Shown here in pieces: positions 3,247-62,152 of a stretch of DNA of 64,000 bases. Numbering within the stretch: the stretch's first letter is position 1; each line of letters begins with the position of its first letter. Origin of the DNA: Azolla caroliniana (Eukaryota > Plantae > Polypodiophyta); contig JBHGNT010000015.1 in the NCBI GenBank assembly GCA_043228905.1, positions 20,216,304 through 20,280,303 on the forward strand, given 5' to 3'. The position numbers were made by a program, and so were the translations under genes. The notes beneath the pieces were generated by a model, which worked only from the letters and a program-made list of their open reading frames with translations, did not search any database and had not been told where the DNA came from.

Positions 3247-3684
3247 TATGGCAAGACTCGAACCCATGAACTTATGCTACATGGGTCGAGCTCTTACCAT
3301 TAGACTATGAATTGTAATTTGTAAGATATTATTTTCATTTATGCTTTATCATAGAAAATTGATGTATATTCTAGATCTCTCTGGAACATTCTAGAAGCTT
3401 CAGGATTATTCCTAAAAACACTATAAAAGGAGGCACAAGGCATTGTTTTGAACCAAATTGGTTCAACGCCAGTCTTAAGCCTCTTAGCCGCTTTGTACTT
3501 ATCTTTCACATAATATATTAGCTGTTGTCATCATCTTTCTCTCTCTCTCTCATTCTCGCTATCTCTCTCTCTCCTCTTCTCACTTCCTCTCTCGGGAGTC
3601 TTACGCAGTCCCGTCCTCTTAGTACTAAGAGTACTGCTCTTCTTTAGTACTAATTCCATCTCTGTTTTAGTACTATTCCTGACA
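3239..3684 (+). repeat. 3' LTR of Tcn1-like family A
   Basis: TG...CA termini, TATA at ~3422, homologous to 42091-42512 and ~46378-46810. Confidence 0.9.
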
Positions 3685-20001: not shown

Positions 20002-20436
20002 ATGGAAACCAATGTTCATAACCACAAGTGTTGCCAAAAGCAAAAGCTAAGGAGAGGGCTATGGTCACCTGATGAAGATGAGAAACTCAAGAACCACATG
20101 ATGTCCAATGTCGGATCAAAGTCATGTACTTGGAGCTCAGTGCCTGAACTCACAGGTACCCACCATCAAATTCATGATTTAAGATCCAACTCTTAATCGT
20201 TATGATGGCGATGATGATGATTGCCATTAAGAGTACCATTAAGAATAACAACAATGCAATGTAGTAGTGAGAAAATTCTAGCAATTAGCTACAAATTAAT
20301 GTACCTAGGTTTGTATCACAACTCGACCTAACTAGTAACAATGTCCAATGTCCAAATTACGTTTGTTTGGTCACGACCTATCTACTATTATGTTGAAGTG
20401 TTGGAAAATTTATATTGTCCAAGTTAATATGTATAC

Positions 20437-20470
<34 letters not shown>

Positions 20471-24069: not shown

Positions 24070-24125
24070 TACCCTAATGGTAAGATGTTACACTACAAAC
24101 ACTATGCCTTGGGTTCGAAACCCAA
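24070..24125 (+). other. tRNA-like Pol III A/B-box element (SINE head or pseudo-tRNA)
   Basis: A-like TACCCTAATGG 24070-24080, B box GGTTCGAAACC 24112-24122, perfect T-arm TTGGG-TTCGAAA-CCCAA. Confidence 0.55.
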
Positions 24126-24191: not shown

Positions 24192-24263
24192 TGTGGAAAT
24201 GTAAATATTGAACCCATGACCTACTGGTCTCCATTGGTCGACCTTACCAACTGAGCTACATCC
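24192..24263 (-). other. tRNA-like Pol III A/B-box element, possibly the start of a decayed LTR
   Basis: Minus strand GGATG-TAGCTCAGTTGG-TAAG...GGTCATGGGTTCAATA; 44 nt A-B spacing; resembles the start of the family A LTR. Confidence 0.55.
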
Positions 24264-27252: not shown

Positions 27253-27791
27253 TGTCGTGACTCTTGAGTAGGAAGCAGAGAGAGAGCGATGGCGATAGAG
27301 ATAACGATAACGATAGAGATGGCGAGAGCGGTAGAGATAGCGATAGTGATAGAAAGAGAGTGAAAGAGGGAGAGAGTGCGAGAGAGAGAAAAGTATAAGT
27401 GAGAGATAAGAAATGGGAATGCGATTATATTATGAGAAAGAAGATTACAAGGAGTAGGCTAAGGGCTAAAGACTGGTGTTGAACCGAATGAGTTGTGATG
27501 AGTATATGGACTCTTATTTATAGGCCCTTATGGAGTATTCTAGAATGTTCTAGAATATTTTAGATATTTATGAATAATAATAATAATAAATATAATCATG
27601 AAATATTCAAGAACATTCTAGAATAATCTAGAATGTTCTAAATATCTCGTAATAACTAAACATATAATTATTATGATTACATCTCACATATGTTATTACA
27701 ATGGTTAAAGTACAATATGTAAACCAAGAGGTTATGGGTTCGATTCCTGGTTCGCCAAGATGAATGTCATGATAAGCCAAGATGTATGTCT

Positions 27792-30700: not shown

Positions 30701-31436
30701 TTCCTGGCTGCAAATCAATTGGGCAATCATATGGTCGATGCTCTGGTAGTCTATTAGCCTTCACCTTATCGAACACATCGGAGAATTCTATGTACTTCTT
30801 TGGTAGTTGGACCCCCAATTCTTGTGAGCTAGATGAGGGAGTTGCTAAAACCGCAAATACCATCATGTCTTCCTTTCTTCCATCCTCTCGTAATTGATGT
30901 ATAGAGATTGTTGAAATTGTGGGGGATCCTAGATCCTTAGTTGGAGCTTCAAGAGACTTGGATTGTACGGTGACCTCTTCAATAGTTCTTTTTCTCCAAT
31001 CAATGGTTGGGTTATGTAACTCAAACCAAGGAAGACCAAGAACTAGAGAGTGCTCCGGACTACTAATGATGTTAAATGAGATGACACTAGCCAAATTACC
31101 TAGGACTACACGAATTGGTTCAGACTCTTCGACTATATCTCCTGATGCTATAGGGCGACCATCGATGACTCCTACAGCTACTGGGTTTGGGAGTTTTTTC
31201 AAGATGATGTTTTGAGTCAATGCAAACTCGCGATCCATGAAACAAGAATTGGCTCCGGAATCTAGGAGGGCAGAGGCTAGGGCGCGATGACCTGTAGATG
31301 TGCTAAGCTCGACTTGTGCAGAAAAAACTCTACTAACTTGATTTGATGAAATGGAACCACAACTAGGTACTGACTCTACATAACTAGGATGGTCCAACCA
31401 AATGGCTCCTATTTTGGCCGGACTTATTCGTTTAAC
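27792..31436 (-). CDS. Gypsy pol (PR-RT-RNaseH-INT-chromodomain), probably expressed by -1 frameshift
   Basis: 1201-aa ORF; LLDSGA, YLDD, ADAS, SLDF/SDRG/SER, GPY, EYEV..YLVDWLGY..TWEP; second His of the HHCC motif reads Q. Confidence 0.93.
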   Translation of the reverse strand, partial: VKRISPAKIGAIWLDHPSYVESVPSCGSISSNQVSRVFSAQVELSTSTGHRALASALLDSGANSCFMDREFALTQNIILKKLPNPVAVGVIDGRPIASGDIVEESEPIRVVLGNLASVISFNIISSPEHSLVLGLPWFELHNPTIDWRKRTIEEVTVQSKSLEAPTKDLGSPTISTISIHQLREDGRKEDMMVFAVLATPSSSSQELGVQLPKKYIEFSDVFDKVKANRLPEHRPYDCPIDLQPGKEPPWGPIYNLSPTELEVLREYINENLANGFIQHSKSPVGAPIFFVKKKDGTLRMVVDYRGLNKVTVRNRYALPLISSLLERLSEAKYFTKLDLRGAYNLVRIRPGDEWKTAFRTRYGHFEYTVMPFGLTNAPAVFQHMANDIFRDFLDIFIIVYLDDILIYSKTQEEHDIHVRQVLQRLREYGLYAKLEKCSFDQRQVEFLGYIVSSNGISMDPSKVQTILDWQTPQSVRDVQCFLGFANFYRKFIKDYSKIVLPLTQLTHKNRSFVWSIDANSAFEGLKQACTSAPILIHVDPMRRFILEADASDFALGSVLSQIGDDGELHPVAFHSRKFEAAEINYEIHDKELLAIVDSFQQWRHFLEGSSQQIIVYNDHKNLTYFQSARVLNRRQARWAQFLTRFDFVILYRPGMQQGKADALSRRSYMELQPGEAAFESQKQILLGPDRLRIMAMHTINTPGDSRLLDSIREQIATDAFAQEVLSHIIPNRASSSQTQNPRLDYTQFSWHDGLLFRQTLLYVPDGPSRLKVMQQCHDTPMAGQFGIHKTFELISRRYWWPRLRHFVTDYVRSCDTCCRSKKPRHHPYGLLQPMPIPEGPWKSISLDFITDLPPSKGFDSILTVVDRFTKMAHFLPCTKTITSQETTDLLMREVFRHHGLPDDIISDRGPQFISKFWRHMFRLLHTSCKLSSGYHPETNGQSERTNQTVEQYLRCFVNYQQDDWVDLLPLAEFAYNNSEHSSTGYSPFFANIGYHPRWTMLEHPELPKNPAAEDRLTRLQEVQDMLLHHLCEAQNTQKKIVDRHRRDSSTTFQVGDRVWLLQGSIKTTRPCYKLDYQRFGPYVISGKINDVTFRLDLPPHMRLHPVFHVSLLEPYTTSSIPGRVTPPPPPIDVSNGSEYEVAAILDSKIIRNKLYYLVDWLGYTPNDRTWEPAEHLANASDMVVAFHNQYPHKPSLNSFLPTRATRHRKGGIMS
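31385..31436 (-). promoter_or_regulatory. -1 ribosomal frameshift signal (G UUA AAC + pseudoknot)
   Basis: Heptamer 31430-31436, 6-nt spacer, stem GTCCGGCCAAA/TTTGGTTGGAC, loop TAGGA pairing with downstream TCCTA; conserved at 45993-46044. Confidence 0.75.
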
Positions 31437-32551
31437 ACATCCTCTAATTGGCTCAAGACATCAAATCTATTCTCATGGCATGGGCTAGTAGGCTTAGTAC
31501 TTAAGTTATTAGAAGTGATAGTAGAACTTGATGTAGGGTTGTCATGTGCACTTACTTGGTAAACTTGACGCCTGGGTTTATGTGGACAATTCACAGCTAT
31601 ATGTCCTGGACCACCACAGTAGAGGCATAGGCGATGCGCCCGACATCGTTGTTTCTCAGCATCTGATAAGGGCCCTCGACGTTGTGTCGACTCTATTTCC
31701 ATCGGAGTGGGACCATCCCTCGTAACGGGTCTAGAACCTTGTGGCGGTGTGGCGACTATAGAAGCGTATGTCTGTTCCGGTTGGCGGCGTAACATTTGTT
31801 GACGTTCAGAACGTCGCTCAAATAGGCGATTATCACATCGCACAGCTCGGCTAATAGCTTCAGTAAGAGACTTTGGATCTTCATGGAAAGTAAGAAGAAG
31901 ATCTTTGACATCGTTACGCAAACCCTGACGGAATTGATCCATTAAGGCTGCCTCATCCCAAGGGATGTCGCATGCCAAGAGACGGAAATCTGCGGCATAA
32001 GCTGAAGCGGGACGATCTCCTTGTCGGAGTCTTCGAATCTTGTTTATTGCAGTCCTAGTGCTATCCGTATCTCCAAAACTAGCTTGAAACTCCTTAACGA
32101 ATGCCTCGAAATCCTCCAGTAATGGTGATTTCTTCTCAAGAAGTGGTGCAAACCATGCTAACGCTGTACCGCTTAGCAAGGTTCCTATTAATCCCACACG
32201 GGCAGCATCAGTTGGATACCGATTGGGATGTAACTGAATCACCAAACGAACTTGATTCAGGAAACCTCGAAAGAGAGATCTGGTACCATCAAACTTGGCA
32301 GGGAGGCTAATCTTTGGTTCCCTTGGGGAGTTTTGAACCCCCGCCGCTTGTTCTCGTAATGTTAATATAGTAGCCTCAAGTTGATGAACCCGTTGTGATA
32401 ACTCCTCATATTGATGAGCTTTCTCAGTACTGACTTGTTGAAGATCCCCGAGTAGCCTTTGATTTTCTTGCTCTAATGCCACAAACTTAGTGGTGAGCAT
32501 ATCGAGCTCCGAAAGGACACGCATATACTCTTGCTTGCTGACCGACTCCAT
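31424..32551 (-). CDS. Gypsy gag (retrotransposon gag domain + CCHC)
   Basis: 375-aa ORF, PAKFDG, LRQG, CLYCGGPGHIAVNC. Confidence 0.92.
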   Translation of the reverse strand: MESVSKQEYMRVLSELDMLTTKFVALEQENQRLLGDLQQVSTEKAHQYEELSQRVHQLEATILTLREQAAGVQNSPREPKISLPAKFDGTRSLFRGFLNQVRLVIQLHPNRYPTDAARVGLIGTLLSGTALAWFAPLLEKKSPLLEDFEAFVKEFQASFGDTDSTRTAINKIRRLRQGDRPASAYAADFRLLACDIPWDEAALMDQFRQGLRNDVKDLLLTFHEDPKSLTEAISRAVRCDNRLFERRSERQQMLRRQPEQTYASIVATPPQGSRPVTRDGPTPMEIESTQRRGPLSDAEKQRCRAHRLCLYCGGPGHIAVNCPHKPRRQVYQVSAHDNPTSSSTITSNNLSTKPTSPCHENRFDVLSQLEDVLNE

Positions 32552-32623
32552 AACCGCGGGGGAAAAAGAAAGAAGGATAAAGAAGAAAGCTTGCTAGAGT
32601 TATTGGAGAAAGGGAAAAGAAAT

Positions 32624-32634
32624 ATTCGGTTCAA
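32624..32634 (-). promoter_or_regulatory. Self-priming PBS (Tf1-type)
   Basis: TTGAACCGAAT 2 nt after the LTR is the exact complement of LTR sequence ATTCGGTTCAA (32865-32875), ~33 nt downstream of the TATA box. Confidence 0.75.
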
Positions 32635-33479
32635 ACTGTCGTGATTCTTGAGTAGGAAGCAGAGAGAGAGAGCGATGGCGATAGAGATAACGATAACGAT
32701 AGAGATGGCGAGAGCGGTAGAGATAGCGATAGTGATAGAAAGAGAGTGAAAGAGGGAGAGAGTGCGAGAGAGAGAAAAGTATAAGTGAGAGATAAGAAAT
32801 GGGAATGCGATTATATTATGAGAAAGAAGAATACAAGGAGTAGGCTAAGGGCTAAAGACTGGTGTTGAACCGAATGAGTTGTGATGAGTGTATGGACTCT
32901 TATTTATAGGCCCTTATGGAGTATTCTAGAATGTTCTAGAATATTTTAGATATTTATGAATAATAATAATAATAAATATAATCATGAAATATTCAAGAAC
33001 ATTCTAGAATAATCTAGAATGTTCTAAATATCTCGTAATAACTAAACATATAATTATTATGATTACATCTCACATATGTTATTACAATGGTTAAAGTACA
33101 ATATGTAAACCAAGAGGTTATGGGTTCGATTCCTGGTTCGCCAAGATGAATGTCATGATAAGCCAAGATGAGTTGTGATGAGTGTATGGACTCTTATTTA
33201 TAGGCCCTTATGGAGTATTCTAGAATGTTCTAGAATATTTTAGATATTTATGAATAATAATAATAATAAATATAATCATGAAATATTCAAGAACATTCTA
33301 GAATAATCTAGAATGTTCTAAATATCTCGTAATAACTAAACATATAATTATTATGATTACATCTCACATATGTTATTACAATGGTTAAAGTACAATATGT
33401 AAACCAAGAGGTTATGGGTTCGATTCCTGGTTCGCCAAGATGAATGTCATGATAAGCCAAGATGTATGTCTTCATGACA

Positions 33480-36400
33480 CTTCTCATCCTACACAGCCGG
33501 TGAGCATGGCTGTGTTCGGATGGGAAATGAAGGTACGTGCCGGATTGCCGGCATAGGAGACGTGTGGTTGACAACCCCGACCGGATGCAAAATGCTGTTG
33601 AAGGATGTCCGACACGTTCCGGAGGTTCGATTGAACCTGATTTCGGCCGGGAGGCTAGACGATGAAGGCTACACAGGTAGCATCCGGAACGGCGTGATGA
33701 AGTTCAGCAAAGGGAGCCTGATAGTGGCTCGGGCCCGGAAGGTCAATACATTGTACCTGATGAATTCCCGGCTATGTCCGGAGGAGCTGAACGTGGCAGC
33801 CGACACTGCCGGAGAGCTGTGGCACAAGAGACTGTGCCACATGAGTGAGAAAGGGATGAAGAGGCTTGCAGAAGACAACCTTATTCCAGTGAAGCATGTG
33901 CACCTGGAGAAGTGCACCGATTGCCGAACCGAACCTCCTTCCACTCAAGGCCACCGACGAGACGTAGCGCACCATTGGAGTTGGTGCATACTGATGTGTG
34001 TCAGGTAGAAACGAAGTCACACGGCGGAGCCCAGTACTTCGTGACTTTCATTGATGATCACAGCCGGAAGCTGTGGACAGCACCGTTGAAGACAAAGGAC
34101 CAAGTATTGTCCGTCTTCAAAGAACTCCACGCGAGAGTGGAAAGGGAATCCGGCAAGAAGCTGAAAACGATACGAGCGGATAACGGAGGGGAATACCGGG
34201 GGCAGTTCCAGGAGTACTGTCGCTCGAAGGGAATCCGGCTCGAGTTTACTGTGCCGAAGACGCCGGAACTGAACGGGCTGGCCGAGAGGATGAACCGGAC
34301 CATAATGGAGAGGGTCCGGAGTATGCTGGCGCATGCGAAATTACCCAAGGGATTTTGGGCTGAGGCAATGTCGACGGCGACGTATGTGATAAATAGATCA
34401 CCCTCAGTACCTTTGGACGGAGACACGCCGCAGAAAGTGTGGACCGGTAAGGAAGTGTCCTACCGGCATCTGAAGGTGTTCGGGTGTCTCGCATACGTGC
34501 ATGTGGCAAAGGACCGGAGAGGAAAGTTAGATCCAAAGACCTGGCCATGCATATTCCTCGGTTACGGCGACGACGAGTTCGGCTACCGAGTATGGGACCC
34601 GGTCGACAAGAAGATATTCAGGAGTCGAGACATCATCTTCATGGAGGACAAGACACTCGCCGACTGGGAGTCGGAGAAGAAGATGAAGAGCTCCAAGTCG
34701 ACCGGTGAGGATCAACTCTACGAGGAGCAGTCCCGACCGCCAAGGGACCGGTTAGCACTCGAGGATCCGGCCGAAGACGGTGAAGAAACCGAACCGGCCG
34801 AAGAAGACGAAAATGATACCGGAACCGGCCCCGATCCCGAAATGGATTCGGATGAAGAAGAATCGGAAGAACCGGTTACCGAAGCTCCGGAACGGAGATA
34901 TCCTCTAAGAGAGAGAAGGGCCCCCCGGAGATTTCCGGAACCAGAGCACGTGCTGCTAACCGACGAGGGGGAGCCGGAGAGCTTTGAAGAAGCAAAGCAT
35001 GACACCCAGAGCCGCAGGTGGTTGAGTGCCATGCAGGACGAGATGGATTCCCTGCATGAGAACCACACATATGAACTTGTGGAGTTGCCGAAAGGAAAGC
35101 GGGCACTTCGAAACAAGTGGGTGTTCAAGCTGAAACCGGGAGATGCCGGAAACCCCCCGAGATACAAAGCCAGGATCGTGGTGAAGGGGTTTCAGCAGAA
35201 GAAGGGCGTCGACTTCGACGAGATTTTTGCCCCGGTAGTGAAGATGACCTCCATCCGGACGGTGCTGAGCATTGCGGCAAGCATGGACCTCGAGGTAGAA
35301 CAGATGGACGTGAAGACGGCATTCCTTCACGGTGACCTCGATGAAGAGATCTACATGCAGCAACCGGAAGGATTCGAGAAGAAAGGGAAGGAGCACCTGG
35401 TATGCCGGTTGAAGAAGAGCCTTTACGGACTGAAGCAGGCTCCCCGGCAATGGTACCGGAAGTTCGACTCCTTCATGACCGACGAAGGGTACCTCAAAAC
35501 GCAGTCCGACCACTGCGTGTTTGTGAAGAAGTTCGAAGGAGGAGACTTTCTAATACTCCTCCTGTACGTGGACGACATGTTGATCGTCGGACGGGACCAG
35601 GTCAAGATACGGATGCTGAAGAAGGCTCTTCACCGAACCTTCTCAATGAAGGACTTGGGTCCGGCGAGGCAAATATTAGGGATGCACATCATCCGGGACC
35701 GGAAGAAGAAGCAGTTGTGGCTGTCACAGGAGAAGTACGTGACGAAGGTGCTTCACCGGTTCAACATGTCGGAAGCAAGACCGGTCGGGTCAACCCTCCC
35801 GGCAAACTGCAAGTTCTCCAGCAAGCAAAGTCCCAAGACAAAGGCTGAGAAGGAGGACATGATGAAAGTGCCATATGCCTCTGCCGTCGGAAGCTTGATG
35901 TACGCAATGGTGTGTACAAGACCGGACATAGGATATGCAGTCGGAGTGGTGAGCCGGTACATGAGCAATCCCGGCAAAGAGCATTGGAACGCGGCCAAGT
36001 GGATACTCCGATACCTGAAGGGCACGGCAAACGTGTGCCTCCGATTCGGCTCCGGTAAGCCCGAACTCGACGGCTTTACCGATTCGGATATGTCGGCTGA
36101 TGCAGATACCAGCCGGTCCACATCAGGGTATGTGATGACGTACGCAGGGGGAGCTGTTTCATGGCAGTCGAGGCTGCAGAAGACGGTTGCGTTGTCAACC
36201 ACGGAGGCGGAGTACATGGCGGCTGTTGAAGCCGGCAAGGAAATAATATGGATGAAGGACTTCATTAGAGAGCTCGGTATCCAGCAGGAGGAGTACCGAC
36301 TCTACTGCGACAGTCAGAGTGCCATCCACCTTGCGAAGAACGCGGCCTATCACTCCCGGACGAAGCACATCCAGCGAAGATATCACTGGATCCGGGAAAG

Positions 36401-38287: not shown

Positions 38288-38843
38288 GGGTGCAAGCAAG
38301 GCTTGAACCTTGCACCTCTATGATAAGAGACGAATTAACTTACCACTAAAGCAACGCTTTAGATTGTGTATATTTTCTCTTCATATTCAATATTTCGTAC
38401 GAAACGAACATATAAAAACCGTGGGCACAAAAACCATGGTTTTAGCCCATGGTTTTAGCCCGTGGTTTTAGCACCCCTGTGGTCTTAGCCCATGGTTTCT
38501 ACCCGTGGTTTTAGCCCATGGTTTCAGCCCACGGTTTTAGCCCGTGGGTTTAGCCCATGGTTTTTGCATGGAGAGACCTATAAAAGCCTATAGTGGGGCT
38601 TGTGTAAGGGCAAGTGATGTAAGTAAAAAAAAAACTTGTAATCAAAGATCTAAGTTATCCTAATGGTGATGTATCTTGTCTCATAAAACTAAAGTCAAGG
38701 GTTCAATCTCTATCTCAATCTCTTCATCCATCTATCTATCTTCAATACTTTCTCGCTTACGTTGTTAAAAACATTGAATCCTTCCGATCCAGGACCCCGG
38801 TGGTCCCGCTTCATTTCACGAACACGCGAGGATTTCCTCGACA
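38288..38843 (+). repeat. Remainder of large Gypsy 5' LTR with 13-bp CCATGGTTTTAGC tandem array (38434-38565)
   Basis: Colinear with 61622-62152. Confidence 0.9.
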
Positions 38844-38888: not shown

Positions 38889-41800
38889 ATGGCTTCGATA
38901 AGCAAAACTCAAGGAGAGGAATTAACGAAAGGTATGGTGTCCGTAGTGGAATACATGTTGAAGGTGAGAGATGGAGAAGCTTTAATCGACAAAGCTATTG
39001 ATCGTATGGTCGAGATAGTTGGACGATTTGGTGGCAAGAACATCATGAATTTCCTTGCTACCTATCGGAACAAGATGTAGCAGAGGGATGTCAACAATCT
39101 CAAACAAATTTCTAGCTTCAAAAGTGTGGTGGAACGAGGTATCCGCAAGCATGTCATGGAGATCCAAAACGAGCACACAACTTGGGTGGAGTTCGAAAAG
39201 GCGCTTCTCGCTGAATACATGCTTGAAGATGCGTCACAGATGACTTGACATACGCTAATGATGTGGATCGAGAAGAAAGGGAAGAATATGTGTGTGTCTG
39301 GAGCATATGCCGAATTCGACTAGAAGTACAACCGACTTCCAAGTGTAGATCAACGAGTTCTTGATGGAGATAAAGTCCTACTATTCCTAAAGGCAGTGGA
39401 TGTGAAAGATCAGCGAGAATTGGGAAACCTTTTGGAGGACGAAACACAACCAAATTGTTTGGTAGCGGACTGGGCGGCGTTGAAGAAGACTTGTAGCCAT
39501 CTTGATAAGCGTCGACAATGGCAAGAGGAAACTGATATGGAGAATCCACAATCGTGGAGGCGGAAGGCGCCTATGACGATCGAGCCTAGCAAGCCGATCA
39601 ACAATTTCGACAAGAAAGTGATGGAAGAATCCATAATTGAAGAGATCTCCAAGAAGTTTGAAGCGGTATCGTTGGCCAACTTAGGTCGATGTGGGCCCAA
39701 TGGAAAAGAAGCGTATAGATGTGTGTGGTGCGACAGCTTCGAGCACTCGCGAAGGGAGTGCACTGACTTGCAAGATGCGATTCGCAAGAACGTCGTCTAT
39801 TTGGACGGCAACATGATTCATTCGAGCGAGACTCGGAAGCCACTACGAGTGAACTTCGAAAGACGCGGGCTGAAAAAGATCGTGCACTATGCTGCATTGG
39901 CCAGGATATGAGTTGGAAGAGAGAATCTAAAGACGATCAAGCCGGGAGTTGGGTTTTGGCAAAATCGATTTGAAGGATCTACAACTTGCTGATCGGAATG
40001 TGCGATGAGTTACCGGATGGTCGGATCCAGTCAACGATAACACAAGCTTTGCAGAGGTTGTGTATGACAACTATGAAGCTCTTGTCGAAGAGAAGAGGAA
40101 AAGAACTGATGAAGAAGATGACACATCAAAGCGTCACAATACGAGGAATGAACGGAAAGAAGGACAAGCCCAACCTACGCCACGAAAAGAGATAGGAGAA
40201 ACAAGCATGAAGCCCGGTGGATCGAGCCAACCTTCTCGGATTGAAGTCGATGAATCTGTGAAGAAAGGAAAAGAACGAGTGGTGCCGCTAAGGTTGGACA
40301 TAGAACAAACAACCGACTTGTGGAAGGTCCTTGAGGAGAAGGTTTTAGACAGTCATGTCGACCTTACTTTGAGAGAGCTACTTGGGATCGCTAAGAAGGA
40401 GTTCCACGATACTATTGTGGAATTGATTAAGCGGAAGAGGCAACAAGCAGATGAAGAGGAGGTGAAAACAAGTGCCATAACTATGGCAAGATCGGAAGAG
40501 GAGAAAGAAGAAGAAGTGATGGTGGACAACCATTACTCTCAGCCTCATTGGGCAAGAGCGACAACGGAGACGCCGGTGAAGATCAGGGAGAAGAAAGAGA
40601 CTGTGGTAGCTTTGATTGACCATGGTTCGGAGATTAACCTCATGTCGACTCAGGTCTACAAAAAGGGAAGATGGCCGATTAATACAAACCACAGATGGAA
40701 GATTCGAGCGGCAACGAGGGCCACGGAGGACTTGTATGGAGCTTGTCCCAATGTTAAAGTCATAATTGGGGATGTGGAGATGGATCAACACTTCTTCGTG
40801 CAAGAATCGGCTTTGCATCCTGTCATCCTGGGTCAACTGTATATCACATCATCTCGGTTGGAGACCAAGGTGTTCAATAATGGAGCAGCCTTCACGCGAA
40901 TCAAGAGTCTTGACAATCAAAGATTTGTTCAATTCCTAACAGTGCGAGCTAATCATGAAAGAAATCGAGATAGTCTTGGAGGTGAATCACCAGATTTTTA
41001 GAGCGGAATATTGAAGCATGGGGCACAAATAGTCCGATCGATCGCAAGTGCCCACAAGGGAGTAGACCGCGTGGATTGCGAGGAGAAGCAACATATGTCA
41101 CACCTAGTGGCACATGTAAACTAGTACTACCCGACAAGAAGGACAAGCGTCAGATACAAGACTTCGAGAAGATGCAGAAAGAAGAAAGCATAATAGAAAA
41201 AGAAGAGTTCGTGACTCATATTATGGAAGAAGCCTCATTTAACGACACCATCAGCAAAATTGAGGATGTCGTGGACTTGAGCTATCTACACGATCATCGT
41301 GTGATTTCGGTTAGCTCCATCAACATGTACGCTATCATCGATGAATATCATCGAAACATCTTGATGAAGGAAGCTGACATCAACACAAAATATAAAACAT
41401 TGGATAGGAAGATCAAGCCAATTGCGGTTCCGCTACCGGAAGATAGCTGGCAAAAGATGAAGGAAGTCGCTAACGATCCAAGCTTAAGAGATCCAAAGAC
41501 AATAGGTCATGTCTTCACCGAAGAGACGAAGGGGAAGTTACAGGTTGGAAGGGAGGATTTCCTCCTCCCTGAAGAGGAGCGAATGTTTCGCGACATGCTT
41601 GAGAGACATGGGAAGGCTTTCGCATTTTCCCCACAAGAAATCAGATGTGTTGATCCAAGGACAATAGAGCCAATGGTAATCTTCATGGTGCCGCACATGC
41701 CTTGGAATTTGAAACCGAAACCGGTTCCGAGAGCACACCTACCGAAGTTGATCGAGCTCTTAAAGGAGAAGGTGGATATGGGAATTTTGGAACCGTCGAA

Positions 41801-42090
41801 TGCTCCCTATTCTAATAGGTGGTTCACGGTGTCGAAGAAGAATGGATCATTGCGATCCATCCAAGATCTTCAACCCGTCAACAAGGTGACAATTCGAAAT
41901 GCTGGAATCTGTCCGAGCATGGACGAATTTGCCGAGGCATTTGCGGGCCGGTCCATCTAATCCATTGGTGATCTCTACTCCGTATATGACCAATTCCAGT
42001 TAGCAATCGACAATCGTGATATTACGACCATGAGGACTCCGATCGGGCTCGTGTGGATGTGTACCTTACGTCCAGGTGAAATGAACTCGG
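38889..42090 (+). pseudogene. Gypsy gag-PR and RT N-half, degenerate
   Basis: CVWCDSFEHSRREC knuckle, PR LIDHGSE, RT PYSNRWFTV.KKNGSLR..QDLQPVN; stops. Confidence 0.85.
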
Positions 42091-45000
42091 TGTCAGGAAC
42101 AGTACTGAGACAGAGAAGGAATTAGTACTAAACGAAGGATTAGTACTATGAGAGGTGTAGAACTTCTTCGAGAGAAGGAAGGAGTGAGCAAGACGGAGAG
42201 GAAGAGAGAGAGAGTGATGATAAGAAAGATATGTATTATATGAAGAGAATATACAATGGTGGCTAAAAGGCTTAAGAATGGCGTTGAACCAATTTGGTTC
42301 AACATAATGCCTAGTGCCCTCTTTTATAGTGTTTTCAAGAGTAATCCTGAAGCTTCTAGAATGTTCCAGAGAAATTTGGAATATACACTAATTTCCTATA
42401 ATAAAATGTAAATGAAAATAATATTCTACGTATTACAATAGATGGTCTAATGGTCAAGAGCTCGACCCATATAACCTAAGGTCATGGGTTCGAGTCTTGC
42501 CATATCATGACACTATCCCCCCTTTAAAACGACGAGTGTCACGAGTCATCTTTGATTGAGGACCCGGTTTGTGTGGATATTGACGATGGAAGTCTTCAAG
42601 AAGAGCACGAGCGTTGGTCACATTCTCGATCGGTTCCCAAGTACGATCGCTGGGACTATAGCCTAGCCAATCGACTAGATAGTAGAGCTTGTTGCAAACA
42701 ATCTTGGAATCAAGAATGGCGGAAACCTCGTACTCCGGCCCATCTTCAAGCTCGATCGGGGTTGGAGGTTGGATAAGACGTCCTGGGATGGTGCTCTCGT
42801 GGTAGGGTTCAAGGAGAGAACTATGAAACACCGGATGTATCCGAAGTTGAGGAGGTAGATCGAGACGAAAAGCGACATCATTAATCTGTCCAATAATACG
42901 GAAAGGACCTAATCGCCGATAATCCAACTTCTCACATGGGCAAGTAGTCTTGATGTGTCGTTGTAGCAGCCACACCCGATCACCAATATTAAAACTGGAT
43001 GGAAGTCGATGACGATCCGCGTAGACCTTGTGTGTTTGTTGAGCTTGCTGGAGATGAGTAGATAAATCCGCTTGTATCTTGCGTAACCGCTCCAAACGAT
43101 CCTCCGCGCACGGATTTGTGGACACCTCTGGGGTTTCAAGTATACTCCACCATGGGTGACATCCCGTATAAGCATAAAATGGCGTAACTTTAGTGGATGC
43201 GTGGATAGAGTTGTTATAGGCAAATTCGGCGAAGTGGAGAATATCTGCCCAGTCATCCTGATGATAACTGAGAAAGCACCGCAGATACTGCTCCAGCGTT
43301 TGATTTGTTCGTTCAGCTTGGCCGTCGGTTTGTGGGTGGTAGCCGAAGGAGAGGTTACAAGAGACCTTGAGCATGTTAAAAAGGTGCTTCCAAAATTTTG
43401 ACACGAACTGGGGTCCACGGTCGCTGATGATACTATCGGGAAGTCCATGATGCCGACATACTTCACGCATGACAATTTCGGCAGTGTCTTCACTGGAGAT
43501 CTCCTTAGTACATGGCAAGAAATGAGCCATCTTCGTGTATCGATCGACCACCGTTAGAATCGCATTGAACCCCTTAGAGACTGGAAGATCTGTGATGAAG
43601 TCTAGAGCAATGGATTGCCACGGCTTGCTTGGAATTGGTAATGGTTCTAATAAACCATATGGATGATGCCTTGGCATTTTCGCTCTGCAACATGTATCAC
43701 AAGTCCGAACAAAATCCTCGACAAATTGTCGCATACAGGGCCACCAGAATGATCGTTGTACTAAATGTAATGTTTTAGTACTACCAAAATGCCCAGCTGT
43801 ATATGTGTCATGGCAGTTTTGAACTACTCGAAGGCGGCAAGAACCATTAGGAACATACAAAATTTCTTTAAAGAAGAGTAATCCATCATGGTATTTGAAT
43901 TGCCGATAGTCCGTACCTGGTGGTTGCGACTATGAACACGACGCTCGAGAGGGATCAATTTGTGCTAGTATAGCTTGGGCGAACGCATCTGTCTTCAAGT
44001 CTTCACGTATGGTATCGATAACGCGGGAATCCATGGGCATGTCAAAGATCTCTGTTGCTTGTAGTCGTGCCGGTCCCAAGATGACTTGTTTTTGGTTATC
44101 GAAAGCTGGCTCGCCGGGACGGGGTGCTAGATACGAACGTCGTGATAATGCATCTGCCTTCCCTTGGTGCTTCCCCGGACGATATGTAATTTTGAAGTCG
44201 AAACGCGTGAGGAAGTGGGCCCACCGAGCTTGACGTCGATTCAACACACGAGCATCCTGAAAGTAGGCAAGATTCTTGTGATCACTAAATACGGTGACTG
44301 GATGAGAGGATCCCTCCAGAAAATGCCTCCATTGCATAAAAGAATCCACTATTGCCAATAGCTCCTTATCATGAATTTCGTAGTTAATTTCGACGGCGTC
44401 AAACTTGCGTGAGTGAAAAGCCACTGGATGTAGCTTCTCATCATTCCCCTGTTGTGATAGAATGCTCCCCAATGCAAAATCCGATGCGTCAGCTTCGATA
44501 ATGAATGCTTTTTCCGGATCGACATGAGCTAGAATTGGAGCCGATGTAAATGCCTTTTTAAGACTCTCGAAATCCATGTCCGTTTCTTCAGACCAGATGA
44601 ACGGTTGTCCCTTCCTGGTAAGTTGTGTGAGAGGTAGAACGATCTTTGAGTAATCTTGTATGAACTTCCGGTAAAAATTGGAAAAGCCTAGGAAGCATTG
44701 CACATCCCGCACCGAACGCAGAGTCTGCCATTCTACCACCGTTTTGACCTTAGCTGGGTCCATGGAGATGCCTTCTGACGAAATGATGTAGCCGAGAAAT
44801 TCCACTTGGTTGCACCCGAAACTACATTTTTCCAGCTTTGCATACAGACCATGTTCTCGAAGTCGTTTTAGTACTGATAGTACATGAGAATCATGTTCTT
44901 CTTGGGTCTTTGAATAAACCAATAGATCATCCAAATAGATGATCAAACAATCATCCAATAGATCTCGGAATATATCATTAGCCATGTGCTGGAAGACTGT

Positions 45001-46461
45001 CGGCGCATTAGTGAGGCCGAACGGCATGACCGTATACTCGAAGTGCCCATATCTGGTGCGAAACGCGGTCTTCCATTCGTCTCTTGGTCGGATACGTACG
45101 AGGTTATATGCTCCCCGTAAGTCGATCTTCGTGAAGAACCTGGCACCATTGATCCGTTCTAAAAGACTTGAGATAAGGGGAAGAGCATACCTATTCCTGA
45201 TTGTAACCTTATTAAAGCCATGGTAATCTACAACGAGACGAAGCGATCCATCTTTTTTCGAAACCAGGAAAATGGGCGCGCCGGCTGGAGATTTCGAATG
45301 TCGAATGAAACCATTTTCCAAATTCTCCTCAATATAGGCCCGAAGGACTTCCAGCTCGGTTGGTGACAAATTGTAGATCGGTCCCCATGGCGGCTCTTTT
45401 CCCGGTTGTAAATCGATGGGGCAATCGTACAGTCGATGATGAGGAAGTGTGTTGGCTTGTACTTTATCGAACACATCGGCGTAATGACGATACTTCTCGG
45501 GAAGTTGAACGGTGGAATCTTCTTTAATGGTGCTGGAGGGGTTTACTGAAATGGTTGCCATCTTCTGAGTTGTCCCTTGGATTTGTCGACATCGGATTTC
45601 TCTTGTTCTCCAATCTATGTCTGGGTTATGTAACTCGAACCACTGTAATCCTAAAACTATAGGATGTTCTGGGATACTAATAATATTAAATGATACTACA
45701 CATGCTAAGTTATCTAGGACAATATTAATGGGCTCTGACTCTTCTATGATATTTCCGGAAGCAATGGGACGTCCATCAATGACTACTACAGAGGCTAGAC
45801 ACTGGAGTTTTCTTAGGGATATCTTATGAACTTGAGCAAATTTCTTATCCATAAAGCAAGAGCTAGCTCCGGAATCTAGGAGTGCTAGGACATGTACTAG
45901 AGGGGTACTTTTAGTACTAACTATTACTTCGGCTATGAACACATCACTAACTTGCTTAGAGGGAATGGAACCACTAATGGGTTGCACAGATCTAGGGCTG
46001 TCCAACCAAACGGCTCCTATTTTGGCTGGACTTAGTCGTTTAACTATTCTTCTAACTGACTAAGGACATCAAATTTGTTTGCTAGATCTGGGCTATTAGT
46101 ACTATTAGGACTATCAGATATCCCTACTGAAATAGGCTCGGGTTTAGTACAATTAGAACTACCGACTATTTGGTTTACCTGTCTTCTTGGCCTATGGGGG
46201 CAATTTATTGCGATATGTCTTGGTCCACCGCAGTAAAGACATAGTCGATTTGTACGGCGTCACTGCTTTTCTTCTTCGGATAATGGCCCTCGACGATGTG
46301 TAGTGTCAATCTCCATTGGAGTCGGAGTATTCGCTGGAGGCGCATTATATGACTCCCTCGGAAAAGGTCTTGCTACCACTGAGACTTAGTACTAAACGAA
46401 GCATTAGTACTATGAGAGGTGTAGAACTTCTTCGAGAGAAGGAAGGAGTGAGCGAGACGAA

Positions 46462-46515
<54 letters not shown>

Positions 46516-46810
46516 TGATAAGAAAGATATGTATTATATGAAGAGAATATACAATGGTGGCTAAAAGGCTTAAGACTGGCGTTAAACCAATTTGGTTCAA
46601 CATAATGCCTAGTGCCCTCTTTTATAGTGTTTTCAGGAGTAATCCTGAAGCTTCTAGAATGTTCTAGAGAAATCTAGAATATACACTAATTTCCTATAAT
46701 AAAATGTAAATGAAAATAATATCCTACGTATTACAATAGATGGTCTAATGGTCAAGAGCTCGACCCATATAACCTAAGGTCATGGGTTCGAGCCTTGCCA
46801 TATCACGACA
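42091..46810 (-). mobile_element. Tcn1-like chromovirus family A, deleted for U5 end, PBS and most of gag
   Basis: TSD CTCGG; 3' LTR 42091-42512; 5' LTR ~46378-46810; PPT 42513-42526. Confidence 0.93.
42505..46044 (-). pseudogene. Gypsy pol with chromodomain, broken near 43860-43930
   Basis: ORFs 43930-46005 (PR, RT, RNase H) and 42505-43860 (INT, chromodomain). Confidence 0.9.
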
Positions 46811-48103: not shown

Positions 48104-48699
48104 TGTCGTGAAGAATTTCGGCCAGAGGCGGAACCCGGGAAACATTGGCTACATCGGCGGGGTGCAGCGTGTGTACGCACCCATGTACATTTAGTGTGAA
48201 TAACGAGGGCGCCTTTATGGCGCCGAAGAGTAGTCAAGTCGGGACAGACGGTCCCATGTAAGTCGGGGTTTATCCCACATTGTAACGCATCCCTGTCCTT
48301 GTTCTATAAAAGGAAGGGAACGCCCTTTGTGAAGGGGTTGCCCATTTTGCATTAGAGGGTATACCGTTAGGATTAGAGTTAGTTTCTTCTTCTTCTTCTT
48401 CCCCCCTTCGTGTTCGCTTAGGGTTTGCTTCAGCTCATCTCCTGCGCAAGACCCCGACCGGTGGCTTGGCAGCTGACAACTACTGTAACCTACCTCGGTC
48501 CGGCTTGACGCCGGGAATGTATTCTTCTTATATATATATATATATATATATATACGTTTGCGTCTGTCTGTGTATATTCGCGTCTTCGTTGGTGTCGGGT
48601 GCTTCCCCTTTCCTGCGTTTCCTGTACTTAAGGGTGTGAGTCGGGTTGGCCTATGTGTGTGTGTGTGTGCGTGAGTGTGTGTGCGTGAGTCGGTGTTAA

Positions 48700-48737
<38 letters not shown>

Positions 48738-48901
48738 GTTGCTTCCGGTGTGCTTCTGGGATGCCCCGGAAATGGTGAAGCACGACTTCCTACGCTCCAT
48801 CACTCCCTAGTCCAAGACCCCCGTGGTCCCGCCTTTCTCCACGCACGCGCGTAACAACGCGACATATTTGGTGAACCTAACGTGAAAGGTGGCAAGGGAG
48901 G

Positions 48902-49960
48902 ATGGAGTCGGAAGACGATGACCTTGCGGAGATGGTGGCCGAAGTGGTGTTGGAGTCAGCACGAGTGGTGATGAGGCGAGAAGTAGCGCAACAAGCGGTT
49001 GAGCGAGTGGTCGAAAGAGTCGATCGTTTCAACGGGGACAAAGTCCCATCTTACTTGGAAGCCTACAACGCGGAAATGGAGGAGCGTGGCGTAGACGAGG
49101 CGTTAAGGCTGGAGTTCTTCTGTCGGGTCCTGGCTGTCCGGATGCATGCGGAAATAAAGGAGCTCCGTGAGGCTCATAGTTCGTGGGAGGCCTTCGAAGA
49201 GGCACTCCTGAAGGCATACGGAGGACGGCGGAAGAGCCGGGGCCGACATGACTTTGACCAGTGGGTAGCATCGGCAAAGACCCACCGGGGCGCGGCCAAG
49301 GCGTTTCGAGAGTTCGAGCGGCGGCTTGCTCAGCTCCCGGAGCGGGAACAAGGTTTGGTGGGGGCAAACAAGGTCCTATTGTTCCTCAGGTCGATCGACC
49401 GAGTGGAACGGGAGGCCATCGGGATTGAGCTCGAAGACGATGATGGAGCGAATGGGCTTACGGAGGACTGGTCGAAGGTCGGAAGGGTGTGCCAACGGCT
49501 AGACAACGAGCGAGCCGAGAAGGCCAAGAGGAAGGTACGCGACGGCGTGCCATCACAGCGGAAAGAGGCCGAACGGCAAAGAGAGTCGGCAAGGGTCGGC
49601 GTTGGGTCAGGATTGCAGAGGCGTACGCAGCTCTCGAGGCGATGCTCGAGGAAGAGGAAAGACGGAGGCCGCAAGCTGAGACTGAGGAGACGGACTTGCC
49701 CGACGCAACGACGGAAGATCGGTACCACGGTACCACGGGAGAGGGTGCGGAACGAAACGCCCTCTCGACTTGCGGAGATAGAACGGCCAAGGACGAGGCC
49801 GAGATATAGATCGCGGAACCGGAACGTTGGGACCAACGGTTTCGGGCATGTCAGCCCGAGATCCCGGTCATTGGAGAAGCAAGCCCAGACGGGGCTTGCG
49901 CGATCGGTAAGAAGACGACCGTCAACCACGAAGAGTCGGTGGCTACGGACAAGGGCGTAA
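48902..49960 (+). CDS. gag-like ORF of the non-autonomous element
   Basis: AVERVVERVDRFNG and KVLLFLRSID..E..LEDD..GLTEDW align with large Gypsy gag (AIDRMVEIVGRFGG, KVLLFLKAVD); C-terminal third doubtful. Confidence 0.7.
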   Translation: MESEDDDLAEMVAEVVLESARVVMRREVAQQAVERVVERVDRFNGDKVPSYLEAYNAEMEERGVDEALRLEFFCRVLAVRMHAEIKELREAHSSWEAFEEALLKAYGGRRKSRGRHDFDQWVASAKTHRGAAKAFREFERRLAQLPEREQGLVGANKVLLFLRSIDRVEREAIGIELEDDDGANGLTEDWSKVGRVCQRLDNERAEKAKRKVRDGVPSQRKEAERQRESARVGVGSGLQRRTQLSRRCSRKRKDGGRKLRLRRRTCPTQRRKIGTTVPRERVRNETPSRLAEIERPRTRPRYRSRNRNVGTNGFGHVSPRSRSLEKQAQTGLARSVRRRPSTTKSRWLRTRA

Positions 49961-50745
49961 AACGGACGGGCAATTCTTTGTGTCTTCCCACACTTGCTCC
50001 CAAGACGATGGCAGTCGGGCCCGAGTGCCCATGTGAGTCCCAAGCGGAGGAAGGCGGCGGCGAAAGGCCAAGAATCACCGGCGAGACGATACGGGGAAGG
50101 AGCAGACGAAAGCCCACGGACCCAATTCCGGAGAACTCGACATTCGGGCCCGTATACCCATGTAAGACCGAGGAGATGGATAGCGGTACTGAGGAGTCCT
50201 GGCACAATGCTAGCGAAGATGGATGGGAAACAGCCTGCGAGGAGGCCGAGGACGGACGCGGCACGAGGAGATCTGCATTCCGATACGGGTGGAGCGTGAT
50301 CCGGCTATGGATTGTTCAATCGGGGCCGGATTCGGCGTAAAGGTGCCGATACGGGAGAGGGTGCGGGACGAGCCGCCCTCTTTTACATGGGGAGAAAGAC
50401 TGACTGGGCGAAGGTCGAGAGTTGGAAGGAGAATGAAAGCCGGTCCTATGGAGTTCCTTACACCGATCCGGCTGCCGGCCCGAATGCTGGCGTGAGTCCT
50501 ATAAGAGAGATCGGTGGCGACAGGAGAATGGGACTCGGCAATCCGGAGAATGCCGAACGGACCCGGACGAGAACCAGGCGGAGCGGACTCCTGGACGACC
50601 ATTCCGGGAGGGAGGAAGAAAGCAGGCCTACGAAGAGGCCGAGGACACGGTACGTCGGTACCACGGGAGAGGGTGCGGAGTAAACCGCCCTCTCGGCATG
50701 CGGAAAAGGACGACCCGGGGCAGGGTCGGGAAGACAAAGCGGAGG

Positions 50746-51206
50746 CCTACGGAGGATCCGTCACACCGGTTCTAGAGACTTCGGCAGTCGGCAACGCGGT
50801 CGACGTAAGACCAAGATACTGACGGTGGCGGCGAGGTGACGAAGGCAAGGGCTACGGATGGGCGGTCTACGGAGGATCCTTCACACCGGTTCTAGAGACT
50901 TCGGCAATCGGCAACACGGTCGACGTAAGACCAAGATACTGACGGTGGCGGCGAGGTGACGAAGGCAAGGGCTACGGATGGGCGGTCTACGGAGGATCCT
51001 TCACACCGGTTCTAGAGACTTCGGCAGTCGGCAACGCGGTCGACGTAAGACCAAGATACTGACGGTGGCGGCGAGGTGATGAAGGCAAGGGCTACGGATG
51101 GGCGGTCTACGGAGGATCCTTCACACCGGTTCTAGAGACTTCGGCAGTCGGCAACGCGGTCGACGTAAGACCAAGATACTGACGGTGGCGGCGAGGTGAC
51201 GAAGGC
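50746..51206. repeat. 120-bp tandem repeat, ~3.8 copies
   Basis: CTACGGAGGATCC.TCACACCGGTTCTAGAGAC recurs every 120 bp; stops in all three + frames. Confidence 0.9.
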
Positions 51207-51534
51207 TATGGGCGTAAGGATGTCCGGTCCTACGAGACTCCGGCAGTTCGGCCAACGTGCCAACATGAGACCAAGAGAGAAGGTTGGTGGCGGCGGGAAA
51301 CGGGACCCGACTACGCAGAAGACACGAGGAGAGTCTGGGAGGGACTCAAACAAAAGACACCCGAATTTTGGCAAGCATAGAAACGGAGCCCGGTCCTATG
51401 GGACCCTCACACCGAGCCGAAGACTCCGGCAGTTCGGCCAACGCGGCAACATGAGACCGAGAGAGAAGGTTGGTGGCGGCAGGGAACGGGACCCGACGAC
51501 ACGAGGTTTCGGAAGGAGCCGGTAGGGGCAAACA

Positions 51535-51716
51535 CGGGGAGGTGTGTCCGGCCAGAAAGGCACACCTTGGACAGAACAAGAGTCTCGCAAGTGGCCATCG
51601 CAGGCCAGATCGAAGCGTGACTACGGGGAGGTGTGTCCGGCCAGAAAGGCACACCTTGGACAGAACAAGAGTCTCGCAAGTGGCCATCGCGGGCCAGATC
51701 GAAGCGTGACTACGGG
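51535..51716. repeat. Tandem duplication, ~89 bp period
   Basis: CGGGGAGGTGTGTCCGGCCAGAAAGG...GAAGCGTGACTA occurs twice. Confidence 0.85.
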
Positions 51717-53014
51717 ACGGTGTTCGGCGCGGGCAGGGCCGAACGAAGGAAGCGGAAGACGGCACAAGGGAGAAGCCGGGAACAAGGTGACAGGTGCCTA
51801 GTGGACTACGCCGGGTCGGAGTCAGGGATGGCAAGAGAGGCCGGAGGAGGATCCTCCACACTCGCTTCGTAGATCTTGATAGCTCTGTCGAAGTAGCGAA
51901 GACTAGCACGGCAAGCCCGGGGTGACAAGCTGGTGGGGGCGAGGGGACGACGGCAAGCGGAAGACTCAGAACCTATTGCAGCAGCACGAAGACGGGAAGG
52001 GCCAAGCAGGCTACTACGGGGTGTTCCTAGGATGCAAAGGACACCAGTATGCGGGGAGCGGCGATGCACGATCTGGCCGGAGAAGGGGCCGACAAGGCGT
52101 GCAATGAACCGGAGTACAATACAGGCAGTGCCAAACAACGGACGAGGGTATGTGGCACACGGAGGTGCCGGAGCGAGAAGGCGAGCGCGGAGAAGACCGA
52201 AAGGGAATCCTCCACACCGTTCCGGAGACCATGGCGGTTCGAGCCGACGCGGCGATGTAAGACCATGGAGAGGGAAGGTGGCGGTGAGAGGACAAGGGCA
52301 GACGACGAGAGCGGGGCGTTCATATGGCCGAACAAGGGCCAGTGGAAGTACACGTACTACGGAGATCGCGGTAGAGGACCCATCGACTGGTCGAACCAGC
52401 CTACGGGGAGGTAAGCGCGAAGGAAGAATCGAAGCTGACGGATCAAACCGGCAGCGAGCCGGGATGCAGATCACGGAAGACCGGTTTCTCACCGGCCGAA
52501 ATCTCTCACCCTTCAACCGGACTTGGCACATACCGGTGGATGTGCAGTTAGGTGGGGGCGGATGTCGTGAAGAATTTCGGCCAGAGGCGGAAACCGGGAA
52601 ACATTGGCTACATCGGCGGGGTGCAGCGTGTGTACGCACCCATGTACATTTAGTGTGAATAACGAGGGCGCCTTTATGGCGCCGAAGAGTAGTCAAGTCG
52701 GGACAGACGGTCCCATGTAAGTCGGGGTTTATCCCACATTGTAACGCATCCCTGTCCTTGTTCTATAAAAGGAAGGGAACGCCCTTTGTGAAGAGGTTGC
52801 CCATTTTGCATTAGAGGGTATACCGTTAGGTTTAGAGTTAGTTTCTTCTTCTTCTTCTTCCCCCCTTCGTGTTCGCTTAGGGTTTTCTTCAGCTCATCTC
52901 CTGCGCAAGACCCCGCTCGGCGCGACGAGCCCGTGAGCTCCCCGACCGGCGGCTTGGCAGCTGACGACTACTGTAACCTACCTCGGTCCGGCTTGACGCC
53001 GGGAATGTATTCTT

Positions 53015-53051
<37 letters not shown>

Positions 53052-53356
53052 GTTTGCGTCTGTCTGTGTATATTCGCGTCTTCGTTGGTGTCGGGTGCTT
53101 CCCCTTTCTTGTGTTTCCTGTACTTAAGGGTGTGAGTCGGGTTGGCCTATGTGTGTGTGTGTGTGTGAGTGTGTGTGCGTGAGTCGGTGTTAAGCGCGCT
53201 CTCTCTCTCTCGCTCTCTCTCTCTCTTCGGTTGCTTCCGGTGTGCTTCTGGGATGCCCCGGAAACGGTGAAGCACGACTTCCTACGCTCCATCACTCCCT
53301 AGTCCAAGACCGCCGTGGTCCCGCCTTTCTCCACGCACGCGCGTAACAACGCGACA

Positions 53357-61491: not shown

Positions 61492-62152
61492 TGTCGTGAA
61501 GATTTTCGGCAACGGTGTGAAAATCGTGAGGAACAAACAAAATCGAGAAAGTGTAATGTGCACTCAAACATTTGTAAATAAAATAAGACTAAAGCCTAAT
61601 AACCTTTGAGTCCATACAAAGGGGTGCAAGCAAGGCTTGAACCTTGCACCTCCATGATAAGAGACGAATTAACATACCACTAAAGCCACTACTAAGTGCT
61701 TTAGATTTTGTATATTGTCTTTTCATATTCAATATTTCGTAGGAAGCAAACATATAAAAACCGTGGGCACAAAACCATGGTTTTAGCCCATGGTTTCAGC
61801 CCGTGATTTTAGCCCATGGTTTCAGCCCGCGGTTTTAGCCCGTGGGTTTAGCCCATGGTTTTTGCATGGAGAGACCTATAAAAGCCTATAGTGGGGCTTG
61901 TGTAGGGGCAAGTGATGTAAGTAATAAAAAAAACTTGTAATCAAAGATCTGAGTTATCCTAATGGTGATGTATCTTGTCTCATAAAACTAAAGTCAAGGG
62001 TTCAATCTCTATCTCAATCTCTCTCTATCTCTTCATCCATCTATCTATCTTCAATACTTTCTCGCTTACGCTGTTAAAAACATTGAATCCTTCCAGTCTA
62101 GGACCCCGGTGGTCCCACTTCATTTCACGAACACGCGAGGATTTCCTTGACA
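61492..62152 (+). repeat. 3' LTR of large Gypsy
   Basis: TGTCG...TGACA after the PPT; matches the two 5' LTR pieces. Confidence 0.92.

Follow-up and report, generated by a model that had tools for sequence, protein, structure and literature searches.

Why would long terminal repeats (LTRs) in retrotransposons that encode their own proteins carry a tRNA-type promoter for RNA polymerase III (Pol III) that points away from the genes of the element? The question is raised by a 64,000-nt stretch of the Azolla caroliniana genome (contig JBHGNT010000015.1, positions 20,216,304 to 20,280,303 of the forward strand; hereafter the window), plant DNA dense with nested retroelements around a MYB-domain gene. 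A sequence-only reading of the window had placed A and B boxes in the U3 of three Gypsy LTR families, here called A, B and C, and all of these boxes are where it put them, 43-45 nt apart. In families A and B, the cassette consists of an A box in tRNA register and an extended B box, antisense to a self-priming chromovirus of the Tcn1 type. Judged from sequence, what appears to be new is a tRNA-type Pol III module that is clade-wide, outward-facing and carried by coding plant elements; such modules were known before in miniature ones.

The layout can be followed in the 3' LTR of element A (42091..42512, minus strand, TG...CA). On the plus strand, i.e., antisense to the element, the A box (tRNA positions 8-19; 42443..42453) is a complete match to TRGYNNARNGG. 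It is followed on the same strand by the remaining D-loop register (20-23; 42454..42458), which is conserved too, by a spacer in the register of the anticodon arm (42459..42478), and by the extended B box (42479..42496), in which the variable-loop motif GGTY (45-48) precedes the B box itself (52-61, at 42487-42496). Counted from T8, the family A cassette is in exact class I tRNA register with an 8-nt D loop and a 5-nt variable loop, and this register is kept across 21 families (see below), which bears out the proposed derivation from a tRNA. Within U3, the LTR end is followed by the B box, the A box, some 50-70 nt of AT-rich DNA, the enhancer repeats, the TATA box and R; in family A the B box is 16 nt from the LTR end, the TATA box is at LTR nt 184 and R starts near nt 219. 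The AT-rich stretch upstream of the A box (42393..42442, plus strand; 69-86% AT over 70 nt in 21 families) is the putative loading place of TFIIIB. Further on are an array of GAAnnTTC/TTCnnGAA motifs (42349..42370), which we take to be of the heat-shock-element type, the TATA box of the LTR promoter for RNA polymerase II (Pol II; 42321..42329, minus strand), and the R start (42283..42295, minus strand), which is the self-primer, complementary to sequence behind the 5' LTR.

The five B boxes at 42487, 46785, 3264 (minus strand), 27737 and 61643 (minus strand) are preceded by an A-type box at 44, 44, 43, 43 and 44-45 nt, respectively; in family B, T replaces G10 of the A box. The cassette is present in the 5' LTR of A (46741..46794, plus strand), in the 3' LTR of another A-type element, itself on the plus strand (3255..3307, minus strand), and in the 3' LTR of element B (27694..27746, plus strand). 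In the 5' LTR of B (32874-33467), a 294-nt tandem duplication of U3 has given two TATA boxes and two cassettes, an inner one (33080..33132, plus strand; B box 33123) and an outer one (33374..33426, plus strand; B box 33417). The sequence GGTTCGANNC occurs eight times in the window against 1.79 expected, and none of 100 shuffles reaches eight, a count that includes non-independent copies of one LTR. A two-box profile trained on 18 related families, with window families A and B excluded (threshold 14), picks out 12 sites in the window, compared with zero in six block-shuffled windows. Of these sites, A/B LTRs contain six and family C LTRs three, two more are at 24.1-24.3 kb, and a weak one at 57697 has no A box. 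The two at 24.1-24.3 kb are A/B cassettes that face each other outside any delimited LTR (24070..24121, plus strand, B box 24112, score 20.4; 24205..24258, minus strand, B box 24214, score 30.7). This pair has no match in the fetched loci and possibly represents a decayed LTR or SINE heads.

Conservation of the two boxes across relatives

Relatives were collected by a chromodomain pattern in a metagenome scan, without consulting the LTR. The resulting 97 stretches and two window matches gave 88 distinct rows, of which 67 belong to the A/B group and 21 to a separate clade. Please note that this split comes from a first tree that contained frameshifted rows and a long-branch outgroup, and that L084 was assigned by eye. 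Fourteen of the 67 rows had no recognisable LTR start, or less than 130 nt behind it, and were left out; the 53 usable rows represent 23 families. An antisense B box (GWTCRANNC, at most one mismatch) is found within the first 90 nt of 49 of the 53 LTR starts, versus 4.2% of shuffles, and in 21 of the 23 families; 36 of the boxes are perfect, 13 have one mismatch, and all 49 are antisense. Eighteen of 21 families have the A-box word ARTGG in register, versus 0.8% of shuffles. The spacing between A and B box is 44 nt in 37 of the 49 and 43 nt in nine, with the A box elsewhere in three. While this spacing stays at 43-44 nt in 46 of 49, the B box lies anywhere between 16 and 63 nt from the LTR end. 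In five tRNA genes from the flanks of the collected loci the A-to-B distance is 43-45 nt.

Since anchoring on the motif would be circular, a motif-blind alignment was made from the first 150 nt of all 23 families. The share of the commonest base is 0.83 at tRNA positions 52-61, 0.83 at 44-51 and 0.82 at 14-23, versus 0.53 for the spacer and 0.49 and 0.56 for the flanks; the LTR end reaches 0.91. The spacer is constant in length and nearly saturated in sequence, with a between-family identity of 0.40 versus 0.44 at third codon positions of the chromodomain. The kept positions are T8, R9, Y11, A14, R15, G18 and G19, then G46-T47-Y48 and G53-C61, with 12 and 59 free; T47, T55 and A58 are invariant (49/49), and C56 is kept in 45 of 49 despite its CpG context when 57 is G. 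This pattern tracks the promoter box consensus, and its second part (G46-T47-Y48 plus G53-C61) matches GTCnnnnGTTCRAnYC, the extended B box of tRNA genes, which includes 46-48 (PMC3159450; most of the papers cited by number were available to us in part, and statements about them refer to those parts). C56 is the base critical for TFIIIC (PMC4228148). The conservation pattern fits selection on TFIIIC binding, and selection on the cassette appears about as strong as that on the integrase end.

The boxes are kept and the cloverleaf is not. In 16 families, the paired fractions of the four stems (0.34, 0.59, 0.36 and 0.61) are at the level of column shuffles (0.30, 0.61, 0.34 and 0.66), and no consensus fold is found on either strand. 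Neither ARAGORN nor Rfam calls a tRNA anywhere in the window or at the cassettes of 20 related loci; a tRNA gene was rejected as the identity of the cassette. The earlier claim that the boxes were maintained while spacer and cloverleaf diverged thus stands. The cassette has turned into a strong hairpin in the A-type families (42460-42497; z about -4 to -5 on both strands), and this hairpin is private to them.

The conserved words might instead be binding sites of Pol II factors or integrase-end sequence, the tRNA likeness being a relic or a coincidence. The B-box block does lie near the conserved LTR end. In contigs of three DNA-type runs aligned to family A, variants of at least 8% occur at 15 of 51 upstream positions, five of six at 8-13 and six of 20 in the spacer, compared with one of 10 at 14-23 and one of 18 at 44-61, the last a C-to-T change at a CpG with 2-9% of depth. 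Since positions 62-72 are as invariant as the B box, this within-family test fails to separate the B box from the LTR end. Between families, the two are parted by a gap that is poorly conserved (0.49) and variable in length, and the two blocks keep exact tRNA register and fixed spacing around a saturated spacer. We consider this explanation very unlikely.

Lineages and orientation of the cassette

Element A (42091..46810, minus strand, 5-bp target duplication) has an in-frame stop in pol at 43930 and lacks the gag start and the end of the 5' LTR with the primer site. Its integrase chromodomain is at 42583..42732 (minus strand; PF00385, E 2e-13) and its polypurine tract at 42513..42525 (minus strand). 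The integrase frame crosses this tract and stops within the first LTR bases (42505-42512; in B, 27792-27799), as in most families of the clade. Element B (27253-33484, 6.2 kb, 5-bp target duplication) has gag and an open pol frame of 1222 aa. Both elements, and the second A-type copy at the left window edge, encode reverse transcriptase, RNase H, integrase and chromodomain in Gypsy domain order. In the chromodomain alignment, Y, W and Y/W occupy what we take to be the positions of the aromatic cage. Eight of 10 loci have an exact 11-nt complement of the primer site at the R start, and changes from family to family are compensated (in B, the site behind the 5' LTR is at 32624..32636, minus strand); no complement of a tRNA 3' end was found as 5' primer site, which pairs with the element's own R start.

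The named homologs of A and B are fungal, fish and algal (42-55% identity), and our trees contain no reference Tcn1 elements. Because of self-priming, the cage-type chromodomain and, by eye, the likeness to SM-Tcn1, we would place the A/B elements in or next to the Tcn1 clade, reported only from mosses and club mosses (PMC6317226), a distribution that by itself would suggest a moss host. Compared by eye, SM-Tcn1 shares with A/B separate gag and pol frames and near-identical integrase and chromodomain motifs (PMC2864245, PMC6317226), as well as the same R-start sequence and self-priming pair (PMC2864245 supplement 1). By eye, the R start of SM-Tcn1 can be seen to pair with sequence behind the 5' LTR, though the available part of PMC2864245 saw no evidence of self-priming. 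The U3 of SM-Tcn1 has tandem repeats and, by eye, no cassette, and none is mentioned in the available parts of PMC2864245 and PMC6317226.

In an integrase tree, the cassette families including A and B form one group with a support of 0.79, rising to 1.0 once three sister sequences, available as proteins only, are included; the cassette-free clade is set apart with a support of 1.0. In that clade, the cassette is absent from all 18 rows scanned (of 21), 13 of them with at least 500 nt downstream. A and B belong to one clade of 21 cassette-bearing families and therefore share one inherited cassette, and C, a Gypsy element without chromodomain (25% identity to B pol), is a separate case. The occurrences in A, B and C are two lineages, not three, so the suggestion of convergent capture by three families is not supported. 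The B box is missing from chromovirus D of the window and from the Copia LTR stretches examined.

Family C also limits the claim that the cassettes are antisense in every case. The listed ones are indeed antisense and in U3, and the LTR of C has both orientations: a weak antisense cassette in U3 (61634..61688, minus strand) and, behind the TATA box (61876), a stronger sense one (61955..62008, plus strand; B box 61999; score 27.1). The antisense copy is present where it had been placed (61688/61643), though under the profile threshold, and the better sense copies had been overlooked. A solo LTR of C (24755-24885 and 38288-38843) repeats both, antisense at 38300..38353 (minus strand; B box 38309; score 16.9) and sense at 38656..38709 (plus strand; B box 38700; score 27.1). 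It is split by a 13.4-kb nest of Copia, element B and an inverted repeat, which breaks it about 13 nt downstream of the antisense B box.

Scans of a viral collection gave no close relatives of A/B or of C. One of its loci (L008), a Gypsy element 34% identical to B pol and presumably resembling the Tekay/Del elements of seed plants, has two sense cassettes in U3 (4835-5055), the first of which is tRNA-Gln-like in relaxed ARAGORN; the other 14 loci have no cassette.

Possible roles of the cassette

Pol III modules in the LTRs of miniature elements make the RNA of the element. The nearest likeness is Helenus/TRIMp3 (Kojima 2024, PMC10886601), which has in common with A/B tRNA-derived sequence in both LTRs. 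Helenus is short and non-autonomous, whereas the A/B clade has 5-6 kb gag-pol elements with a TATA promoter. Its cassette is sense in the four LTRs compared, including the Selaginella one, and can make genome RNA; here it is antisense in 49 of 49, and so cannot. Cassandra likewise has a Pol III promoter within plant LTRs, long kept (PMC10886601, PMC12786077); it is, however, non-autonomous, with a 5S type 1 promoter that drives its own RNA and a conserved terminator, while the A/B cassette is of tRNA type with no conserved terminator. We found tRNA-derived LTR cassettes in the literature for Helenus only and none in autonomous plant elements, and Repbase entries or subscription papers may cover this clade. 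The available part of PMC10886601, which studied only elements under 1000 bp, remarks on "not a few" Repbase LTRs with tRNA-like parts, so that such parts in LTRs are generally known in passing. An outward-facing, clade-wide cassette cannot make element RNA and yet appears to be under selection; the A/B-clade cassette is thus indicated to have another job.

We see about an even chance that the cassette is a TFIIIC/TFIIIB site selected as DNA, i.e., a portable barrier of the tRNA-gene (tDNA) type beside the Pol II promoter of the LTR. In this model, a tRNA gene or the head of a SINE would have been captured once into the U3 of the clade ancestor and copied to both LTRs by reverse transcription. 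TFIIIC would bind the A and B boxes and TFIIIB would load on the AT-rich DNA that separates the A box from the enhancer/TATA region, so that the Pol III complex faces away from the Pol II promoter with TFIIIB between them. The 5' LTR promoter would be shielded from spreading heterochromatin or from read-through at the silent insertion sites that the chromodomain integrase is thought to favour, and outward Pol III RNA, if any, would be a by-product. Yeast tDNA complexes position nucleosomes, halt heterochromatin and block read-through (PMC4228148). As in yeast tDNA barriers and ETC sites (B-box-dependent TFIIIC sites with RNA-independent effects; PMC4228148, PMC3159450), a bound DNA site would be what matters; those are fixed chromosomal sites, whereas this one is carried by a retrotransposon. 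No SINE body, A/T tail or target duplication is evident by eye, and the LTR end follows shortly after the B box. Among the five flank tRNA genes, the D loop is best matched by Arg(ACG) and Gln and the variable loop by Thr and Asn; there may also be a likeness to other plant tRNA-Arg genes.

Several points weigh against a barrier. Ten of 18 families have lost G10 of the A box, which the other 8 keep, and positions 8-13 of the blind alignment, at 0.54, are barely over background. Although the B-box consensus leaves positions 49-52 free, they are fairly conserved (T50 in 42, G51 in 43 and G52 in 48 of 49), which makes 44-61 an almost continuous block, like a pairing site. The sense layout is known from family C and the single locus L008, with cross-family conservation shown only for the A/B clade. 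In yeast, tDNAs stop Pol II and can repress promoters close by (PMC4228148), and a complex on the 3' LTR would meet the genomic Pol II transcript head-on, which is the main unexplained cost. Related chromodomain chromoviruses thrive without the cassette (0/18 in the related clade, SM-Tcn1 by eye, chromovirus D of the window), and no demonstration of tDNA barriers in plants was found in the literature searched.

The continuous block leads to another explanation, absent from the sequence-only reading, which we consider unlikely: the cassette acts in the genomic RNA, where the antisense 3' U3 anneals to the T-arm/variable loop and the D loop of a host tRNA and so aids dimerisation, packaging or strand transfer, like the U3 half of the Ty3 primer site. 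The tRNA of Ty3 uses its T-psi-C and D arms for pairing with U3 (PMC5371799), and the two conserved blocks here correspond to those arms and are antisense in all 49. Most variants in 44-61 are transitions, which wobble could tolerate. Ty3 is tRNA-primed, however, and its U3 part completes the primer site, whereas the A/B clade self-primes and its U3 motif does not track primer changes. A58 is invariant here. In mature tRNA this base is m1A and unable to pair. Position 59 is a pyrimidine in 9 of 49, none of the five flank tRNA genes (a small sample) matches both blocks, and relatives replicate without the cassette. The sense copies in C and L008 allow a DNA site and not an RNA-pairing site. If tRNA pairing were true, a tRNA would have a role in self-priming elements. 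Pairing of the U3 motif with the self-primer was considered separately and rejected; L015, L041 and L075 have an altered primer and an unchanged motif. In A and B, the R-start self-primer (42283-42295, 27478-27490) matches a sense B box, GGTTCAACRC, and that of L075 has a one-mismatch B box in a different register, both maybe by chance; no A box lies upstream of these three.

If the boxes are used for transcription, the outward Pol III RNA might itself be the selected product, antisense to the integrase end when it starts in the 3' LTR and so damping the element, or serving small-RNA control, which we regard as quite improbable. Both boxes, the tRNA spacing and the AT-rich upstream stretch are the requirements of a transcribed unit, and antisense RNA of Ty1 silences in trans (PMC12786077). 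Pol III microRNA cassettes in foamy-virus LTRs are a precedent for A and B boxes in the LTR of an autonomous element, where they are required for Pol III transcription (PMC3993851); they give defined hairpin products and have T-run terminators, neither of which is conserved in the A/B clade. A T4 run lies inside the LTR in only 5 of 21 families and within the LTR or 30 nt beyond in 9 of 21 cumulatively; 10 of 21, among them family A, have none over the next 185-240 nt. The hairpin (z about -4.9) is limited to the A-type families, and the product from a 5' LTR would be random flank. Neither a terminator nor a fold is conserved, which weakens this alternative.

The boxes could also serve integration, tethering the element DNA to Pol III sites or acting as landing pads for tRNA-targeting elements, and this we hold to be highly improbable. 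Isolated B boxes attract TRE5-A (PMC3159450), and five tRNA genes were found in 4 of 85 loci scanned. One of these is in the cassette-free clade, A and B are nested in other retroelements, the window has no tRNA gene, and LTR-similarity ends are not clustered upstream of the A box. The five tRNA genes or pseudogenes (L036, L058, L065 and L082; about 107 kb of non-coding DNA, which seems dense) are at no fixed distance to LTR ends. In this small sample, landing pads or tRNA targeting are unsupported.

If the barrier reading is true, it would explain in concrete terms how chromoviruses that seek heterochromatin remain expressed, would allow tDNA barrier function in plants to be tested with a single base (C56), and would imply many mobile TFIIIC sites. 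A wider proposal is tentative and, to us, rather doubtful: autonomous plant LTR retrotransposons may have repeatedly captured tRNA promoters and kept them as portable TFIIIC/TFIIIB barriers which, with thousands of copies, would be the main TFIIIC sites of the host, exceeding tRNA genes and shaping chromatin domains. Cassettes in LTRs would also help explain LTR fragments among SINE-finder output; about half of the candidates from SINE programs are other elements or none (PMC7315354).

Other features of the window

The heat-shock-type arrays of U3 (42349-42370 and 27520-27650 in the window) occur in 14 of 21 families; the remaining seven have other, CATG-rich repeats at the same place. The element into which A is inserted has long frames without Pfam match (39324-41960), as does a GC-rich 5-kb element within chromovirus D (48104-53356), which has direct repeats of about 800 nt. 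An R2R3-MYB-type gene at 19999-21428 has three apparent exons amid repeats.

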